Below the pieces are notes generated by a model, which worked only from the letters and a program-made list of their open reading frames with translations, had not been told where the DNA came from and ran no database searches. The position numbers and the translations under genes are program-made. From positions 1,568,001 through 1,632,000 of the forward strand of contig OZ241867.1 in the NCBI GenBank assembly GCA_965203175.1: DNA of 64,000 nt. The letters run 5' to 3'. Of this stretch, positions 22,671 through 29,739 are shown piece after piece (positions within the stretch are counted from its first letter, which is position 1; the number at the start of each line of letters is the position of its first letter). The stretch comes from Candidatus Latescibacterota bacterium (GTDB lineage: Bacteria > Latescibacterota > UBA2968 > UBA8231).

Positions 22671-23627
22671 TCAACTGTCATCGCGATAAGGACCTGTATC
22701 AATGCCGGGTAGGGTATGCTCCAAAAGGTCTAGCGTTTGGCTGGTGAAGTACGGGTGTCCGGGTTCGGGCCAACCGAACAGGCCGCGCACTCTGGGTGTG
22801 GTGGCCGTGAAAAAGGGCAGCATGTGATCGCGTTCGCCGTAGATAAAGGGATTGGCGAACCGGGTCCAGCGATCATTATCGCGGCGACACATGGACAGAG
22901 TCCAAAAGGCGCGCTGCTTGCGCTTATTGGCAAAGGGTTGCGCCGCGTGTACTAGGTAAGACGAGTAGAAGAGAGCCGCCCGCCGCCGACCCGTGGCGGG
23001 GACCGGAGCGGACAGTTCGGTGGCTTGGCGCAGGTCTTTGAAGGATCCACCCGCGGCGTTGTCGTGGTCCAGCGCCCGCACAAAAGCGGGACCAGCTACT
23101 TTGTGCGAGCCGGGAATGACCAGCATGGGGGCACCGTCGTCTTCGACATCGTGCAGGTACACTCCCGAATTGACGTAGTCGAAACGGCCTATTTGGTCGT
23201 GGGGCGGCAGCAGGCAATTGGTGTAGTGGTCGATGTGGTAGCCCTCCCAAGGATTGTCGGGATGGCGCTTGTCAGTAGGCCCCGAGCGCATAAAAAGGTG
23301 GGCATTGCAGTAGCTGGCTTTTGCGTCCAAGCATTGCTCAAAAACGTCGAGATAAGTCTCGTTTTCTATCAGCCGATCCAAAGCCGGCGCGCCCACGGGA
23401 AATTGCGAGCGGCCCTCGGAGTGGTCGTGCGTGGTGGTGAAGCCGTCCGAGACTCCGGAGGCATTGCCGCGGTCGCAAGCGGCCAGCCATTGCTCGAAGG
23501 ATTGACCGTAGAAAATCTGTTCCATCGCCGCTAGAGCGGCATCCATCTCGTCGGCAGTGAATAGGTCGGGGACAATGATGTAGCCGTCGCGGTGGAATTG
23601 GTCGAGCTGGGCTGGCGTTAGGCTCAT
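22671..23627 (-). CDS. PhyH-family dioxygenase
   Basis: QFHRDGY, YHID, IPGSH, LVHA...R. Confidence 0.82.
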   Translation of the reverse strand: MSLTPAQLDQFHRDGYIIVPDLFTADEMDAALAAMEQIFYGQSFEQWLAACDRGNASGVSDGFTTTHDHSEGRSQFPVGAPALDRLIENETYLDVFEQCLDAKASYCNAHLFMRSGPTDKRHPDNPWEGYHIDHYTNCLLPPHDQIGRFDYVNSGVYLHDVEDDGAPMLVIPGSHKVAGPAFVRALDHDNAAGGSFKDLRQATELSAPVPATGRRRAALFYSSYLVHAAQPFANKRKQRAFWTLSMCRRDNDRWTRFANPFIYGERDHMLPFFTATTPRVRGLFGWPEPGHPYFTSQTLDLLEHTLPGIDTGPYRDDS

Positions 23628-23759
23628 GGGGTCTCGATCTAGTAAGGTTGAGGTTGATTTTCAAGCGGTTGGTGGTAAGATACCGCACTCGACTAGCGAG
23701 TCAACTCAAGGAGGAAACCGGCCTTCAATGAGATTTCCGAACTTTTTCTCCTTCGTCTT

Positions 23760-23786
23760 TGAACCTGTACTTTCCGGGCGGCGTCT
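23760..23786 (+). promoter_or_regulatory. Candidate ECF-sigma promoter TGAACC-N16-CGTCT
   Basis: TGAACC at 23760-23765, a 16-nt spacer and CGTCT at 23782-23786, about 20 nt upstream of the sigma ATG; matches the AAC/CGT consensus of many ECF promoters. Confidence 0.6.
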
Positions 23787-23805
23787 TTATTTCCAGAGAG
23801 CCTTG

Positions 23806-24405
23806 ATGCAGATACCGGACCCACAACTCATAGCGCAAATAAAAGAACGCGATGAACGCGCATTCCAGCAGTTCTTTGAGCGCTATCGGGAGCAGATCCA
23901 CGATCACGTGCGCCGCATCGTTCGCGACGATGCGAGTGCCAACGATGTAGTGCAGGAGGTTTTCTTGCGAGTGTGGAACCGGGCCGGCCAATGGAGCGGT
24001 CGAGGGGCTGTAGCTGCTTGGCTGTTTAGCATCGCCACTCATCTCTCCCTGACTCACCTGCGCACCGTGCGAAGGCGGCGGGAACAGCGGCTGGAAATGC
24101 TGTCTGAAACCGTGGAGCAGGAGACGCAGCAAGTGCCCGAATGGATGATTGAGGCGGCGTCCGAGCGCCCCGACGCCCAAGTGGAACGGGCCGACCAGCA
24201 GCGCTGGTTGCGGCGACAAGTACAAGAACTGTCCGAGGACAAGCGCGAGGTTTTCCATCTGATCTACGACGCCCAAGTAGAAGTGCGGGACGCCGCCGAC
24301 CGCTTGGGCATTCCCGAAGGCACCGTAAAGTCGCGGCTGCACCACGGCCGCCGCCAACTCTCACAGGCTTGGCAGGCCATCCATAACCCGGAGGAGCATG
24401 AATGA
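23806..24405 (+). CDS. ECF (sigma-70 group 4) RNA polymerase sigma factor
   Basis: Region 2 (AFQQFFERY, DVVQEVFLRVW, WLFSIA) and region 4 (LGIPEGTVKSRLH); likely ATG at 23806. Confidence 0.92.
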   Translation: MQIPDPQLIAQIKERDERAFQQFFERYREQIHDHVRRIVRDDASANDVVQEVFLRVWNRAGQWSGRGAVAAWLFSIATHLSLTHLRTVRRRREQRLEMLSETVEQETQQVPEWMIEAASERPDAQVERADQQRWLRRQVQELSEDKREVFHLIYDAQVEVRDAADRLGIPEGTVKSRLHHGRRQLSQAWQAIHNPEEHE

Positions 24406-27400
24406 CATTGAATCTCGACGTACCTTGGCATAGGGAGTCCTTTGACCTTTTCGTCCACCAGCGACTGCCCCAGCTTTTGGGCGAGCGCTTGCCGCTGGCC
24501 GATTATCAAGTCGAACAACAGGACTCCTATACTTTTTCCATTAAACTGAGCTTGGGACTCGGCGATGCCCCGGTCGAGGTTGAGTACCGAGATTTGCCTC
24601 GGCCCGACCGCGATGGTCTTTTCCACATTGAAGGCAACTACCGGGTCGTGGTCCCCTATCCCGACCGGCGCGAACTCGCTCAAGCGCGGATTCTGTGCGT
24701 GGGCGAGCAGCTCTACGACTTTATTGACCAAAGATTGGAAGCGGCTCCTGAGCAATTGGCTTGGGATGGCGACTTAGTGCGGAGTTGGCTGCCGCTAGAC
24801 GCTTGGATGCGCGACTTCCACTTGGAGGCAACTTCCCAGTACCTCCAGGCGACCAACTGGCTTGACCGCTATACTCATCTGCGGCGGCTGACTTTGATCC
24901 CCATCGTTGACGAGCCTTTTGTCGACCAAGACGTTTTCCCCGACAGCCAATACGGCCTAGTGTGCCCCCACTGCACTCCCGAGGGACCCAATATCGGCCG
25001 AGTGCTAGAAGTAGCCCGCGGTGCCCGCATCCGCGACGGCAAGCTCGAACGGATCGACGAAGCGCCCGACAGCATCTTGGGTTTTTCGGCCTCCATGGTG
25101 CCCTTTCTCGAACACGACGATACCAATCGCGCTCTGATGGGCATCAATATGATGCGCCAGTGGACGAGCGCCGCCGATACCGCGGCACCGGTCCACGCCA
25201 CGGGTTGGTTCCGCCAGCAGCACGATCAGCGCTTGGCCTCCAAGGGCCACAAACCCGAACCAGCCCTAGTGCAGACGGGATACGAGCCGGAGGCCGCCGA
25301 CTTTTGGGGCGGGTACAATCTGCTGACCGCCTTCGTCATGTGGGATGGGGACACGTTTGAGGATGGCTTAGTCATTAGCGAGTCGGCCGCGGCGCGGATG
25401 GACTTTCCCGCCGCAGTGGGGGTGGGCGACAAACTAAGCAACCGCCACGGTGCCAAAGGAGTGGTGGCGCGCATCCTGCCCGACGCCGACATGCCGCAGT
25501 TGCCCGACGGTACGTCGGTAGAGCTCATTTTGAGTCCGACCAGTATGGTCTCGCGGCTCAACTTCGGCCAGCAGCGCGAGGCGGTCATGGGTCGCATTGC
25601 CCGAGCCGAGGGGACTCCGGCGGTGGTGCCGCCTTTCCAAGCACCCAGCGAAAAAGTGTTGAAAGCGCGTCTGGTTGAGGCGGGACTGCCCGAAGACGGC
25701 ATGGAGCAACTGACCCTCAAAGGCGCAAAGCTGCCCTATCGCAGTACCGTGGGTTGGGTGTACTGGGGTCTTCTGGCGGCCCACACTGCGGCCGAGCACT
25801 TGGAAACCGCGGTGATAGGAGTCGGCGGACCAGCGCTCGACATGATGGCCTACGGAGCTTTGAGCGAGGCCGGGGCCGTAGCCAATATCCACGCTTTGTT
25901 CAACACGGCCGCGGCTGAGCGGCCCGACGCCGATGCGCTAGGCCAGCGTTTGGCTTCTGACCCAATATCCCCGTCTCCGCCTCCGTCTCCACGCTTTGCT
26001 CTATTGCAGCAGTTGTTGGGTATGGCCGGGATACGGGCCGAGTTGGCGGGCGGGGCATTGCGCTTTGCCTTTGCCGAGCCGAAGGGATTGACCTTGGCTC
26101 GCCCCGTGTCGCACCCGTGGGCACCGGGACGCCAAGTAGGGACGGTGGGAGATCCCGGCGCTTTGCCTGCGGGGATCGAGTTCGACCCGATTCGAGGCTG
26201 CTACGAGGATTTGGTCGAAGCTAATACGCGTTTGCAGCGCATCATCGATAGCGAAGCGCCCGAGGCTCTGGTCGGGCCAGCAGTGGCACAGGTGACCCAA
26301 CGGGTGGAGGATTTTTTTATCGCGTTGTTGCGCCCGGAGCACCTCCACTTTCAAGCAAGACCGCTGTTTAGCGGCCGGGCCGCGCTTGTCTCTGGTTTTG
26401 AGTTGGAGCTCGACCAAGTGGGCCTACCCGAGGAGATGGCCTGGAATTTGTTCGGGCCTCAGGTAGAGCGGGAGATAGGTCGCGCCGAGGAAGTGGCGCA
26501 GCGTTCGCCCCGAGCGGCTAAGGTTCTGGACGCGATCATGGAGCGCTCGTGGGTGCTGCTGTACAGCGCCCAGCGGGTGCTAGTTGACGATGGCCCGGCG
26601 TCCACCGCAGTGGTGGCCTTTCGTCCGCAGCGTTTGGCCGGGGCCGCAGTGCGCGTCCATCCGCGCATTTGCCGACTGATGGAGCTAGATTTCGACGGCG
26701 ATCAGATCGAGGTGTTTTTGCCCCTCACTGAGGAAGCCCAGGCCGAAGCCGAAACTGCGCTGTCGGTGGCCGGGCACATACAGCGCGACGCGGATATATG
26801 GCGCTACGTGACCGACAACTACCACGGCATGATATGGGGCTTGGCGCAGCTTTGCCGCACGGAGGAAGGCCGCGCCGAAGTGGAACGGCTGACCGGAGTG
26901 GCCGTGGATGGCAGTCGGCTGTTCGTCAAGCACGACCTCAACCGCTTATTAGCTCAGGTGCTGCAGCGCGAGGGCCTAGAGCGAGCACTGGAGGTACTCG
27001 ACCAGCTAACGCGGCGCGGCTTTGAGGTCTGCAAGCAGTCGGGGGCCTCCTTCAATCCCTTCCTCGGTTCGAGCAAGGAGTGGCCTGAGCAACCCGAGGA
27101 AGCCGATTGGGACGAGTGGCAAATGTACAGCGACGAGTTAGTGGCAGCTTTCTACCAGCAGGCCGATTTCGACGACAACGACTTGGGGCCTTTGGCTCTG
27201 TTGTCGCTGTCGGGGGCGCGGGGCAACCAACAGCAGTTGATCCAATACGTGGGCGGCGGTCTGCTCTATCGGGAAGATGGCAGTCTATTCGCTCAGCGCG
27301 GTTGTTGGCGCGACGGCCTGTCGGTAGAGGAAACCAAGGTGCGGGCCCCGCGTGCCTTATGGTGGGGTCTGGCCGCCGCCAACCAGCGCTGGATTGAGGC

Positions 27401-27566
27401 GCAGGAAGCGGCCCAACAGCCCGTCCGTGCCGATTACCACGTTTTGGGCCGGGCCGCCAAGGCCGCGCAGCCGGGCGTAGTCTTTGCTAGAGCGGCTGAG
27501 CGCGGAGAGACCGATCCGCTGACCAGCCTATTCAGCCGGCTCTTTGCAGGGCTACCAGCGAACTAG
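24402..27566 (+). CDS. Miniature single-chain RNA polymerase beta-beta' (RpoB-RpoC)-like fusion protein
   Basis: Ordered RpoB motifs ([60 protein letters not shown].GQ) followed by RpoC motifs (SGRA, QVGLP..MA, DFDGDQ, SGARG). ATGA overlap with the sigma gene; GGAGGAG RBS. Confidence 0.9.
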   Translation: [1054 protein letters not shown]

Positions 27567-27579
27567 GTCTCAATCAATG

Positions 27580-28428
27580 TTACTGTACCACCGCTTCGTC
27601 GCCCAAATGCTCGCGGATCCACGCTTTCAGCGGCACGTCTTCTTCTTTCGGCGAGGTGTAGCCGTGCCCGCCGCTCGGACCGGCACCTAATAGCTGCTGC
27701 CGGATCGGATCGCAGCGGTCCATCAGGTGATCCACCGTCATGTCGTCGCGTGGCCGCAACCAGCGGTAGCTATAGCCGTAAAACAGCGCCCTGCGCGCGT
27801 CGGGCGAAAAGTTGTGACCGGCTGCATGCCAGATCCGCCGATCAAAAAACACCGCGTCTCCCGCCGCCACTTGGATCGGCGTTGTGCCTACTGGATCTAA
27901 GTCTTCGTCCTCGGGCATCTCGATCTCGTTTTTCAGGTGCGAACCGGGTACTGCGTGGAAGTTGCCGCGATTGGTCTCAGTGCAGTCCGTGAGAAAGTAC
28001 GCCACCTTGAGCGAGACCCTCGGCCGGGGCTGAGTCTCCATGTCGATGTTGAGCCGCCCACTGTCTTGATGCCAACCCAGCCGCTTGCGCGCGGGCACCA
28101 CGCCGTCTAAAGGCGGAGTGACGATCAAGTGCGAGTGGTAGAGTTGAATGTGCCAGCCCAAAATCCCGAAGACCTTGGCAAACGTCTTTGGCCAGTCGAG
28201 CAACTCCAAAAAGAGTTCGTCTTTGCCGATAAAGTCGAAAAAGTTGTGCATCTGGTGCTTTTCCAGCCCCTTTTGCAGCCGGGCCTCGGCGTCGAGGCGA
28301 TCGACGACGGGGATGAGCTGGGCGACTAAATCCAAGGGCAGCACATCGCGGACGATGAAGAAGCCGTCTTCGTCAAATTGGCGGCGCTCCTCCTCGGTCA
28401 ACGTATATTGCAGGCAGGTTGCATCCAT
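27580..28428 (-). CDS. PhyH-family dioxygenase
   Basis: FDEDGF, WHQD, VPGSH, GDAVFFD..IWHA, RR. Confidence 0.85.
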   Translation of the reverse strand: MDATCLQYTLTEEERRQFDEDGFFIVRDVLPLDLVAQLIPVVDRLDAEARLQKGLEKHQMHNFFDFIGKDELFLELLDWPKTFAKVFGILGWHIQLYHSHLIVTPPLDGVVPARKRLGWHQDSGRLNIDMETQPRPRVSLKVAYFLTDCTETNRGNFHAVPGSHLKNEIEMPEDEDLDPVGTTPIQVAAGDAVFFDRRIWHAAGHNFSPDARRALFYGYSYRWLRPRDDMTVDHLMDRCDPIRQQLLGAGPSGGHGYTSPKEEDVPLKAWIREHLGDEAVVQ

Positions 28429-28502
28429 GAGAAACCTCCAAATTGTAGGCAGTTCAATAGTATTTCAATTAACGGACATTACGCACAGGCTCCTAGGTAT
28501 GG

Positions 28503-28588
28503 GATGCTTCGCTTTGCTCAGCATGACAAGTGCTGGTTTGCTGCTTCACCGAGTCATGCTGAGCGAAGCGAAGCGGAGTCGAAGCATC
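28503..28588. repeat. REP-like intergenic inverted repeat
   Basis: gcttcgctttgctcagcatgac ... gtcatgctgagcgaagcgaagc form an imperfect long stem. Confidence 0.75.
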
Positions 28589-28617
28589 TATACCTCAATG
28601 CCCATGCGTAACATCAT

Positions 28618-29739
28618 TTAATAATGGCCGGGCAATCGCCGCACTGCCCCCGGTACTACCGGATCGCCACGGTGGGCACTCGCCACGGCCGCAAAACACA
28701 GCGCCAAACTCGCCAGATTAGCATGGGCACTATTGCTAGACTCGCGGCCCTCCTCGACGGCGCAGAGCAGTTCGGCCATGGTCCCGTGAAACCCCTGCTC
28801 AAACCACGTCCCCACAAGCTGCGGCCGGGCCACACCCGCTGCGGTGTACAAGATGACTTCCTGCGCCGTCAAATCCACGCCGCTAGCCCCTATTGTGCCC
28901 TCCGTGCCGACCAGATACGTGCGGTCCTGTTGTCCTTGGCGAGTGTTGCCGTTAAAGAAGATCGTCGCTTGCGCGCCCGCGCACTCAATCGCCGCTTGGG
29001 CCAAAAGCGGCGGCTTGGCATCCTGATCGGCTCCGTGCCGAGCCGAGGCGTGGACCCGTTGCGGCGTCTCATCTCCTAAAAGTACCGCCGCCATATCGAA
29101 CCAGTGCATCCCAAAATCGTAGAGCACCAGATCTTCCACCGCGTCAAAGGCGGACCCAGCGATCCAGTTGTGATCCCAATGCACGGCGAACTCGACGCTC
29201 TGCACTTGGCCGACCAAACCAGCGGTCACAGCGTGGCGCATGTAGCTAAAATGTGGTGCCCAGCGGCCATTCTGATTGACAGCTAGTTGCACGCCGCGCC
29301 GCTCGGCCCGCGCAATGAGCGCCTCGCCCACATCCAAGTCGAGCACAAAAGGCTTCTGGCTGAGGACGTGTTTGCCCGCGTCAATGGCCGCTTCAAGGAT
29401 CGGCAACCGCTCCTGCGGATGGGGCGTAACGTCCACCACCTCGATATCGTCGCGGGCGAGCAGATCCCGATAGTCGAGGTACGTATCGGCCGCTGGGTAA
29501 AACTCCCGCTGCCGCTGCTCGACGCGCTCCCGGTCGCGGCTGCACAGGGCTGCGACCTCATAGCCGGCGTTTTTATAGGCCCGCAAGTGCATCTCGGAGA
29601 TGCCGCCGCAGCCGATCAGGCCGATCTGTGGACGATAGGTCGCCGGATCGCACGGTTGGTAGGGCAAGTCCGGGGCTGCTACTTCGATCTCCGACCCGGT
29701 TTTGCCTCGGCCATAGCCGCTGTCTTGGCTTTCCGCCAT
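28618..29739 (-). CDS. Gfo/Idh/MocA-family oxidoreductase
   Basis: IGLIGCGGI, GKHVLSQKP, LYDFGMHWFD. Confidence 0.9.
   Translation of the reverse strand: MAESQDSGYGRGKTGSEIEVAAPDLPYQPCDPATYRPQIGLIGCGGISEMHLRAYKNAGYEVAALCSRDRERVEQRQREFYPAADTYLDYRDLLARDDIEVVDVTPHPQERLPILEAAIDAGKHVLSQKPFVLDLDVGEALIARAERRGVQLAVNQNGRWAPHFSYMRHAVTAGLVGQVQSVEFAVHWDHNWIAGSAFDAVEDLVLYDFGMHWFDMAAVLLGDETPQRVHASARHGADQDAKPPLLAQAAIECAGAQATIFFNGNTRQGQQDRTYLVGTEGTIGASGVDLTAQEVILYTAAGVARPQLVGTWFEQGFHGTMAELLCAVEEGRESSNSAHANLASLALCFAAVASAHRGDPVVPGAVRRLPGHY

Follow-up and report, generated by a model that had tools for sequence, protein, structure and literature searches.

The window described here is a stretch of 64,000 nucleotides from Candidatus Latescibacterota bacterium (GenBank assembly GCA_965203175.1, contig OZ241867.1, positions 1,568,001 to 1,632,000 of the forward strand). 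It carries a cassette of two genes, the first encoding a sigma factor of the extracytoplasmic function (ECF) type and the second a single chain in which reduced forms of bacterial RNA polymerase's beta and beta' chains (RpoB and RpoC) are fused, hereafter the mini-polymerase (Table 1). Coordinates are positions within the window, and residue numbers are those of the open reading frame (ORF) 24402..27566 unless the sigma factor is stated. The stretch 25356-26318, singled out in a preliminary description of the sequence, lies entirely inside this ORF.

Table 1. Features of the sigma factor/mini-polymerase cassette.
Feature	Position	Strand	Details
ECF-type promoter before sigma gene	23760..23785	+	TGAAC 23760-23764 (-35-like), CGGCGTC 23779-23785 (-10-like); ends 20 nt before ATG 23806
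ECF sigma gene	23806..24405	+	199 amino acids, from M61 of long ORF 23626..24405
Mini RNA polymerase gene	24402..27566	+	1,054 codons, single open frame; reduced RpoB (N-terminal half) fused to reduced RpoC (C-terminal half)
Beta N-terminus remnant	24402..24671	+	residues 1-90; lobes otherwise gone
FED-to-GDK stretch of beta double-psi barrel	25356..25433	+	residues 319-344; flap deletion at nt 25404-25409
Second beta barrel half (GDKLSNRHGAKGV) and beta C-terminal clamp/anchor	25407..26069	+	residues 336-556
Beta/beta' junction	26070..26174	+	residues 557-591; two beta hairpins, HPW motif, no Zn-binding cysteine cluster
Clamp-helix hairpin	26175..26327	+	residues 592-642; AlphaFold2 helices 592-616 and 621-642, 4-residue turn
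DFDGD, catalytic magnesium-binding motif of beta' barrel	26688..26702	+	residues 763-767; aligned to host RpoC DFDGD at 458
Long helix at bridge-helix start	27324..27413	+	residues 975-1004, AlphaFold2 helix; hhalign pairs 1002-1004 with RpoC 776-778
Short conserved C-terminal tail	27414..27563	+	residues 1005-1054; only 50 residues past bridge helix

The host genome consists of a single 6.58-Mb contig, in which ordinary rpoB (1,264 amino acids) and rpoC (1,364 amino acids) are located at 3.92 Mb, 2.3 Mb away from the cassette. Since canonical versions of both genes are present, the mini-polymerase gene is accessory, an extra, fused and reduced copy beside a normal rpoB/rpoC pair.

Pfam matches to the mini-polymerase were confined to Rpb2_3 and Rpb2_6 (E 1.2e-31) in the first half and Rpb1_2 (E 8.1e-12) in the second, three domains compared with the eleven RNA polymerase-specific domains of host RpoB and RpoC (six and five, respectively). 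Scores fell far below the cut-offs of the NCBIfam models for RpoB (TIGR02013; 160 bits against 801.15) and RpoC (TIGR02386; 93 bits against 963.5), and likewise below those of the models for fused beta/beta' chains (NF007172, 158.9 against 5,372 bits; NF011417, 150.2 against 4,632 bits). Searches of solved structures, using both the sequence and the family profile, returned among the matches listed only beta/beta' chains and their archaeal counterparts. Alignment of the family profile to the host subunits with hhalign gave a probability of 100 for RpoB and 99.8 for RpoC, with clean, domain-sized gaps. The AlphaFold2 model of the mini-polymerase, built with 49 homologues in the input, had a mean predicted local distance difference test (pLDDT) score of 91.1 and a predicted template modelling (pTM) score of 0.87. 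Matches listed for this model by Foldseek and VIA-align were RNA polymerase beta/beta' chains, their archaeal, eukaryotic and viral counterparts and unnamed entries of a viral library, at E values of 1e-22 to 1e-18 and Z scores of 27-30 over model residues 1 to approximately 550. A chance resemblance to RNA polymerase is excluded by the Pfam E value of 1e-31 together with the invariance of the motifs across the family, and the comparisons clearly identify bacterial beta and beta' as the source of the protein, whose layout is that of the multisubunit polymerases.

The preliminary description had observed that the ED of one motif and the K of another lie some 23 amino acids apart in the beta-like half, and had concluded that the flap is gone. 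This proved correct. FED occupies residues 319-321 (nt 25356-25364) and GDK residues 342-344, placing 23 amino acids between D321 and K344, compared with 267 in canonical host RpoB (FED 766-768, GDK 1033-1035); hhalign with the family profile resolved the difference as one uninterrupted deletion of RpoB 783-1026 (244 amino acids) between query residues 335 and 336. Pairing of query 339-405 with Escherichia coli beta 1060-1126 by phmmer makes K344 the counterpart of position 1065, and GDKLSNRHGAKG at residues 342-353 corresponds to the GDK...RHG.KG motif of the beta-type double-psi barrel. Either side of the deletion, both halves of this barrel are kept, query 294-335 aligning with host RpoB 741-782 and query 336-474 with 1027-1166. 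The fork (query 119-210, host RpoB 438-531) and the beta C-terminal domain 7 (query 475-556, host RpoB 1182-1263) were also recovered by hhalign, and the region equivalent to host RpoB 1027-1263 is almost entire. RpoB 549-599, the external-1 domain (Pfam Rpb2_45), has no counterpart. Towards the N-terminus, no Pfam match to the protrusion and lobe domains Rpb2_1 or Rpb2_2 was found in the mini-polymerase; the VIA-align pairings (Z 27-30) began at residue 1 of the model and at residues 11-48 of the beta/Rpb2 chains, and a weak local hhalign match of query 60-85 to host RpoB 129-154 (E 0.0064) was collinear, albeit not significant alone. Several differences from host RpoB were seen in the hhalign alignment at residues 140-200 or thereabouts (24820-25000), opposite a stretch of RpoB which we take to line the rifamycin pocket.

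In the beta'-like half, almost all of RpoC 1-265 is missing. Host RpoC carries its Zn-binding cysteines at 69, 71, 84 and 87, and the mini-polymerase has no cysteine between residues 192 and 599. The junction of the two halves is modelled by AlphaFold2 with strands at 562-571 and 574-583, and H571, P572 and W573 in it are invariant; its collinear local match to host RpoC 104-129 (E 0.11) is not significant alone. Beyond the clamp-helix hairpin, hhalign aligned query 642-821 with host RpoC 328-519, the active-site barrel, and query 822-1004 with host RpoC 561-778, the part that reaches to where the bridge helix begins. RpoC 308-327, immediately past the hairpin and presumably the rudder, is without counterpart, as is the segment where the lid would sit. 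The helix at 975-1004 aligns to RpoC up to residue 778, at the start of Rpb1_5, and past it approximately 575 RpoC residues (trigger loop, jaw and remaining Rpb1_5) are without an equivalent; no Rpb1_5 match was found by Pfam in the mini-polymerase, compared with 747-1281 in host RpoC. The remaining tail contains the invariant residues R1017, A1018, P1024, R1030, A1031, L1040, R1046 and G1050, and shows a weak collinear match of query 1026-1050 to RpoC 1297-1321 (E 0.11), again not significant alone. These weak local matches suggest that a beta' N-terminal strand (HPW) and an extreme beta' C-terminal motif survive, but they were not relied upon. Greedy over-extension of the hhalign alignments (RpoB blocks before query 91 and RpoC blocks before 590 and after 1004) was ignored.

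Taken together, the alignments show the loss of the lobes, external-1, flap, Zn-binding domain, rudder, trigger loop and jaw, with clean edges at domain boundaries. Besides both catalytic double-psi barrels, the protein retains the fork, funnel and bridge helix, the C-terminal clamp part of beta and the clamp-helix hairpin of beta'. The preliminary description had reported the Zn-binding domain and beta lobes as missing, in agreement with the absence of cysteines between 192 and 599 and the presence of only three Pfam RNA polymerase domains. Its proposal that the deletions follow domain boundaries is likewise upheld by the clean gaps at the flap, Rpb2_45, rudder, Zn-binding domain, lobes and post-bridge region.

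The same description had aligned a peptide, here placed at residues 595-639 (nt 26184-26318), with the beta' clamp coiled-coil, the main docking site of sigma region 2, and had reported several of its basic residues as acidic or neutral. Both points held. Query 600-641 aligned with host RpoC 266-307, the clamp-helix stretch (hhalign; probability over the entire beta' match 99.8), solved beta' chains were matched by the family profile from their residues 267-269, and the AlphaFold2 model does show a coiled-coil there, as two helices joined by a turn (Table 1). Over these 42 residues the charge is -5 in the mini-polymerase and +5 in host RpoC. The family mean is -1.7 (range -6 to +2, n=49), compared with +3.9 (range +2 to +5, n=32) for canonical rpoC of other loci. 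As calculated from the aligned sequences, the change of charge is real and general across the family. The hairpin belongs to the more variable regions of the protein, with a column entropy of 1.79 compared with 1.04 and 1.37 for the barrels and a mean of 1.48, and it nevertheless has a fixed pattern, N608 and P620 occurring in 61 of 61 homologues and R610, L611, R613, A619 and L623 in most.

Relatives of the mini-polymerase were abundant. A word-indexed search returned 568 proteins at E <= 0.001 among 8,000 scored candidates, and in an exhaustive search the 48 best representatives at 50% identity were 840-1,101 amino acids in length with E <= 1e-185. All seven of the listed entries that carried a source name were 'hypothetical protein'. 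Two sets of loci were compared: the genome loci, the best 80 of 592 stretches encoding relatives (canonical rpoB and rpoC among them), and the metagenome loci, 80 of 229 such stretches, of which those with 700 nt or more of upstream sequence, 63 in all, were counted. The mini-polymerase family accounted for 37 of the best 80 genome loci, the other 43 being ordinary rpoB or rpoC. Among species-representative genomes the family covers at least six phyla, the Latescibacterota, Poribacteria, Chloroflexota, Armatimonadota, Planctomycetota and Myxococcota. A single family record was labelled Gemmatimonadota and another only 'uncultured bacterium'. Of 61 non-identical homologues, all had D343, R348, G350, F764, D765, G766 and D767, and 56 had D763. 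The catalytic motifs are therefore invariant or nearly so in the homologues compared, which supports the view that the reduced form is under selection. This had also been the inference of the preliminary description, and the size of the family, its invariant catalytic residues and its largely vertical inheritance within the phyla sampled agree with it.

A quick tree was constructed from 31 rows, the full-length pairs from genome loci together with the window, truncated loci being left out. Latescibacterota formed one clade (10 rows, support 99), as did Poribacteria (7 rows, support 100), and the phylum labels required five changes, the minimum possible. This argues for an old, largely vertical inheritance with losses. 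Within the phylum of the window the gene was detected in 66 of 168 genomes (E <= 1e-100) and in 19 of 52 high-quality genomes; within the genus it was detected in 21 of 30 other genomes and was absent from a closed genome of 4.5 Mb. The patchy presence in both phylum and genus indicates that the mini-polymerase is dispensable. One genome of the same class (G076) has two full-length copies, at 1427408-1430581 and 3368600-3371734 of its contig C1, with 48% and 46% identity to the query. Assembled contigs of relatives from RNA libraries (four runs, three studies) were 90-99% identical to parts of the sigma and polymerase genes, and two spanned the junction between the two genes (24266-24966 and 24074-24540). 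Such contigs show neither strand nor level and may reflect DNA carry-over, and they were used only as a hint of expression. Metagenomic clusters of 1,221-1,787 amino acids with Rpb2_6 and Rpb1_2, named 'hypothetical protein', were seen in the ESM Atlas; they may represent further fused, reduced polymerase families and are mentioned as a lead only.

The stop codon of the sigma gene overlaps the polymerase start codon in a 4-nt ATGA, and GGAGGAG is positioned 6 nt before the polymerase ATG. The sigma factor matched Sigma70_r2 (E 5.8e-15) and r4_2 (E 2.1e-12), passed the cut-off of TIGR02937 (98.5 bits against 42.9), and was modelled by AlphaFold2 with two confident helical domains at sigma residues 61-150 and 185-255. 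Since homologues begin at about sigma residue 60-61, sigma residues 1-60 have a pLDDT below 50 and the promoter lies within those codons, the ATG at 23806 is taken as the true start. The long ORF, with 23626-23805 included, would lead a gene caller to start the sigma factor 180 nt too early. All 37 genome loci of the family have a sigma homologue upstream and in the same orientation, at a distance of no more than approximately 275 nt in 34 of them, and such a homologue is upstream in 54 of the 63 metagenome loci. The sigma and polymerase genes are the only gene families common to all loci; flanking genes are shared solely among the closest relatives, and no anti-sigma, alpha, omega or mobile-element gene was found as a conserved neighbour across the loci. 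Together the sigma and polymerase genes make up a two-gene unit, preceded by a promoter of ECF type whose conservation extends across phyla. The spacing of the unit varies in a few loci. One (L016) has a gap of 1.2 kb between the genes, and in two loci of a single Latescibacterota subclade a gene for a 598-amino-acid protein resembling an ABC exporter is inserted between them (L012:3162-4958 and L022:3017-4723), which is perhaps a clue to what triggers the cassette.

The sigma factor represents a distinct ECF subfamily. Its family profile scored 295 bits here and 106 bits for the next of 16 other ECF-like matches in the genome. The usual ECF region-2 residues are kept, with no visible charge swap. 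The linker between regions 2 and 4 carries a conserved PxWMID motif (sigma residues P171 in 60, W173 in 55, D176 in 52 and P182 in 57 of 61 homologues) that is missing from seven paralogous ECF sigma factors in the genome. According to PMC6648896, ECF linkers generally show no residue conservation, and on a normal core the linker passes between the lid and rudder and leaves via the RNA exit channel.

The consensus of the promoter motif is TGAAC-N14-CGGTGTC, the window having the version CGGCGTC. It resembles the sigma-E consensus GGAACTT / GTC as given in PMC6648896. A promoter model was trained on 25 genome loci with the metagenome loci held out. In 32 of the 37 genome loci the motif occurred a single time, at a site upstream of the sigma gene, and it was recovered in 54 of the 63 held-out metagenome loci, and no other site reached a score of 15 on either strand of the 428,964 bases of the genome loci. 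In a position weight matrix scan of the 6.58-Mb genome of the window, the cassette promoter was the best site, with a score of 28.4 compared with a control maximum of 17.3, and no second convincing site was found. In five Poribacteria genomes the exact pattern gave 17 matches, compared with 4 for the control. Because no good further copies of the promoter were found, the only clear target of the sigma factor is its own operon. In two loci (L126 and L127, positions 1427-1501) the motif is located 74 nt before the polymerase gene, with no sigma gene within 1.5 kb upstream. L126 also has a transposase-like ORF upstream (261-818), possibly of the Y1 type.

Docking of the sigma factor on the mini-polymerase was assessed by complex prediction using polymerase residues 290-1054 and sigma residues 61-259. 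The score was 0.50 (runs 0.53, 0.46 and 0.50), compared with 0.00 for the best of three controls; the runs shared at least 36% of contacts and the partner pLDDT was at least 66. Of 80 solved complexes 58 reach the pass mark, as do 2 of 110 mismatched pairs; at scores of 0.60 or less it is reached by only 7 of the 80 solved complexes and by both of the passing mismatches. A pass may reflect a mere likeness to solved sigma-polymerase complexes. Co-variation was calculated as mutual information with average product correction over 61 non-identical sigma/polymerase pairs (effective number 39). The number of hairpin and sigma region 4 pairs among the top 200 was 9, compared with 2.7 expected, and was treated as noise. 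Pairwise identities of the sigma factors and polymerases were correlated (r 0.875 overall, 0.609 among distant pairs), which says nothing on contact because adjacent genes share their history.

Most probably, the mini-polymerase serves as an accessory polymerase in conjunction with its own sigma factor. The mechanism that we favour, and hold to be somewhat probable, has the sigma factor driving its own operon and programming the mini-polymerase. In this mechanism the sigma factor would switch on the operon from the TGAAC-N14-CGGCGTC promoter, and the mini-polymerase would be catalytically active. The sigma factor would also work with the mini-polymerase, region 2 docking on the retained hairpin and the conserved linker (PxWMID) supplying extra contacts, there being no flap tip for region 4. 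In its favour are the strict pairing with a sigma factor, a linker that is specialised, a hairpin retained selectively while most of the neighbouring clamp elements went, and a complex score rated as 'weak support'. A bolder formulation, in which the pair would amount to a second cellular transcription system consisting of a single chain of approximately 115 kDa without alpha or omega and its own ECF sigma factor, seated on the re-surfaced hairpin with aid from the linker and in the absence of flap, lid and rudder, can be put forward only tentatively.

A number of observations weigh against the favoured mechanism. The lone target of the sigma factor would leave a sigma-bound mini-polymerase with nothing known to transcribe except itself: the next sites in the genome (20.3, 19.7 and 18.3) are intragenic and antisense, and of the 17 matches in Poribacteria five represent the promoters of the cassettes themselves and the remaining 12 overlap ORFs of 100 amino acids or more. 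On a normal core, the hairpin-to-flap distance determines how far apart the -35 and -10 elements lie. The cassette promoter keeps its -35 element at the usual ECF spacing, as fits a sigma factor on a flap-bearing core, and the mini-polymerase is without flap, lid and rudder. In the normal holoenzyme, as described in PMC6648896, sigma region 4 docks on the flap-tip helix of beta, a site that is absent here with the deletion of the flap. The inverted charge of the hairpin faces a sigma factor with ordinary ECF region-2 residues, so that the canonical polar interface is not obviously preserved. The complex prediction lay in the weak band of scores and reported no interface. Hairpin and sigma region 2 positions supplied 3 of the top 200 co-varying pairs, compared with 4.1 expected, in an underpowered analysis. 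No sigma gene was present within 1.5 kb upstream in 9 of the 63 metagenome loci. The suggestion in the preliminary description that the altered clamp surface co-evolved with the partner sigma factor did not gain from these results, given the null co-variation and the lack of a charge swap in sigma region 2, and the data lend weak support at best to binding of the cognate sigma factor by the hairpin and to their co-evolution.

Alternatively, the sigma factor may be an ordinary ECF sigma acting only on the flap-bearing core of the host, with the mini-polymerase as its one controlled gene, finding its templates in another manner and working free of sigma, as YonO may do, and with the hairpin retained for structural reasons or for a NusG-like factor. 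We regard this as rather unlikely. The promoter elements have the spacing and sequence usual for ECF sigma factors, and regions 2 and 4 of the sigma factor appear ordinary. None of the elements by which ECF sigma factors are guided on the core (flap, lid and rudder; PMC6648896) is present in the mini-polymerase, and the inverted hairpin charge is unmatched by any change in sigma region 2. The null co-variation, from an underpowered analysis, points the same way, as do L126 and L127, with the promoter directly before the polymerase gene, and the minority of loci without an adjacent sigma gene. What this explanation leaves unaccounted for is a conserved sigma linker, unusual for ECF factors, the missing anti-sigma or other conserved neighbour, the keeping of the hairpin and HPW strand while the Zn-binding domain and rudder were removed, and a complex score that, though weak, was 0.50 compared with 0.00 for the control.

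The absence of a conserved anti-sigma gene beside the pair could instead be explained if the mini-polymerase served mainly as a sink for its sigma factor, providing negative feedback in place of an anti-sigma, with RNA synthesis secondary or lost. The cassette promoter as the only clear target, the retained hairpin and the weak support for binding from complex prediction are all compatible with such a role. It is nonetheless improbable, given the near-invariance of the catalytic residues and active-site scaffold (61 homologues and 49 aligned sequences), none of which a decoy of 1,054 amino acids would need.

Reduced single-chain relatives are known from a phage and a plasmid, namely YonO (PMC5467207) and Orf6 (PMC2919709), and the mini-polymerase might by analogy belong to a phage, plasmid or other mobile element residing in the chromosome. 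Its patchy distribution in the phylum and genus and the transposase-like ORF upstream in L126 could be read in this way. Against this, 37 pattern matches in a collection of viral contigs yielded no confirmed relative, no PADLOC family was matched, and PHROG matches were confined to families of full-length beta- and beta'-like proteins. The lack of conserved mobile-element neighbours, with flanks shared among the closest relatives only, and the phylum-wise clades of the quick tree with the minimum of five changes also speak against it, making a mobile element very improbable. A decaying paralogue or assembly artefact is refuted by the 1,054 open codons, the relatives of 87-97% identity found at full length on many independent contigs, the confident AlphaFold2 model and the invariant motifs.

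Canonical bacterial RNA polymerase shares with the mini-polymerase its sequence homology to beta/beta', catalytic motifs and clamp-helix hairpin, and the partner of the cassette is a standard two-domain ECF sigma factor with an ECF-type promoter. It differs in comprising approximately 2,600 amino acids in two chains rather than 1,054 in one. The mini-polymerase is without the lobes, flap, Zn-binding domain, rudder, trigger loop and jaw of the canonical enzyme, the charge of its hairpin is inverted, no alpha or omega gene adjoins it, and the linker of its sigma factor is conserved. Full-length RpoB-RpoC fusions (NF007172 and NF011417, models of approximately 2,850 positions) have the same subunit order but keep all domains. 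Jumbo-phage multisubunit polymerases work without alpha and omega. These are, as described in PMC7598289, PMC4666361 and PMC5449584, reduced beta/beta' homologues like the mini-polymerase, but are made of several polypeptides, phage-encoded and far more divergent.

YonO, from the Bacillus subtilis prophage SPbeta, is, according to PMC5467207, a single chain that shares few catalytic residues with the cellular polymerases; by that description it resembles the mini-polymerase as one polypeptide of approximately 100 kDa with no trigger loop and a kinship to the multisubunit enzymes. Unlike YonO, which is prophage-borne and has no known sigma partner, the mini-polymerase is chromosomal, sigma-paired and aligns over approximately 860 residues to cellular subunits, with blocks of 25-45% identity. 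The yeast cytoplasmic plasmid pGKL2 encodes Orf6, described in PMC2919709 as a 982-amino-acid Rpb2::Rpb1 fusion that has lost about half of its sequence. Subunit order, extent of deletion and size are thus similar, but Orf6 is by description of eukaryotic origin, plasmid-borne and without a sigma factor, indicative of an independent reduction. YonO and Orf6 are the nearest analogues of the mini-polymerase, and neither, as described, is chromosomal in free-living bacteria or sigma-paired.

No paper describing the mini-polymerase family was found in a literature search whose coverage excluded most subscription journals. The main text of a paper reclassifying ECF sigma factors (PMC7826278) makes no mention of RpoB, RpoC, Rpb or an RNA polymerase subunit, and one of its supplementary texts contains no Rpb1, Rpb2, PF00562 or PF00623. 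A widespread, conserved mini-polymerase with its own sigma factor and promoter is apparently undescribed. Were the bolder formulation correct, it would be the smallest known sigma-dependent polymerase and half of a natural orthogonal sigma/polymerase pair. Under the favoured mechanism it would show which parts are needed for sigma-dependent initiation, a question so far approached only via engineered deletions, and there would be an accessory polymerase in several little-studied phyla, the Latescibacterota, Poribacteria, Chloroflexota, Armatimonadota, Planctomycetota and Myxococcota. As a compact set of sigma factor, polymerase and promoter with almost no other genomic sites, the cassette could serve as an orthogonal expression tool. 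Were the sigma factor to act through the host core only, a conserved cellular mini-polymerase with a seemingly intact catalytic centre would still be a puzzle worth experiment.

Downstream of the cassette, a dispersed repeat of approximately 120 bp is located at 28496-28612, between the minus-strand genes 27580..28428 and 28618..29739. Matches to it, complete or partial, number 33 in the genome and lie on both strands, some being partly palindromic. It was associated with very high contig depth and many loose ends in four RNA-library runs.

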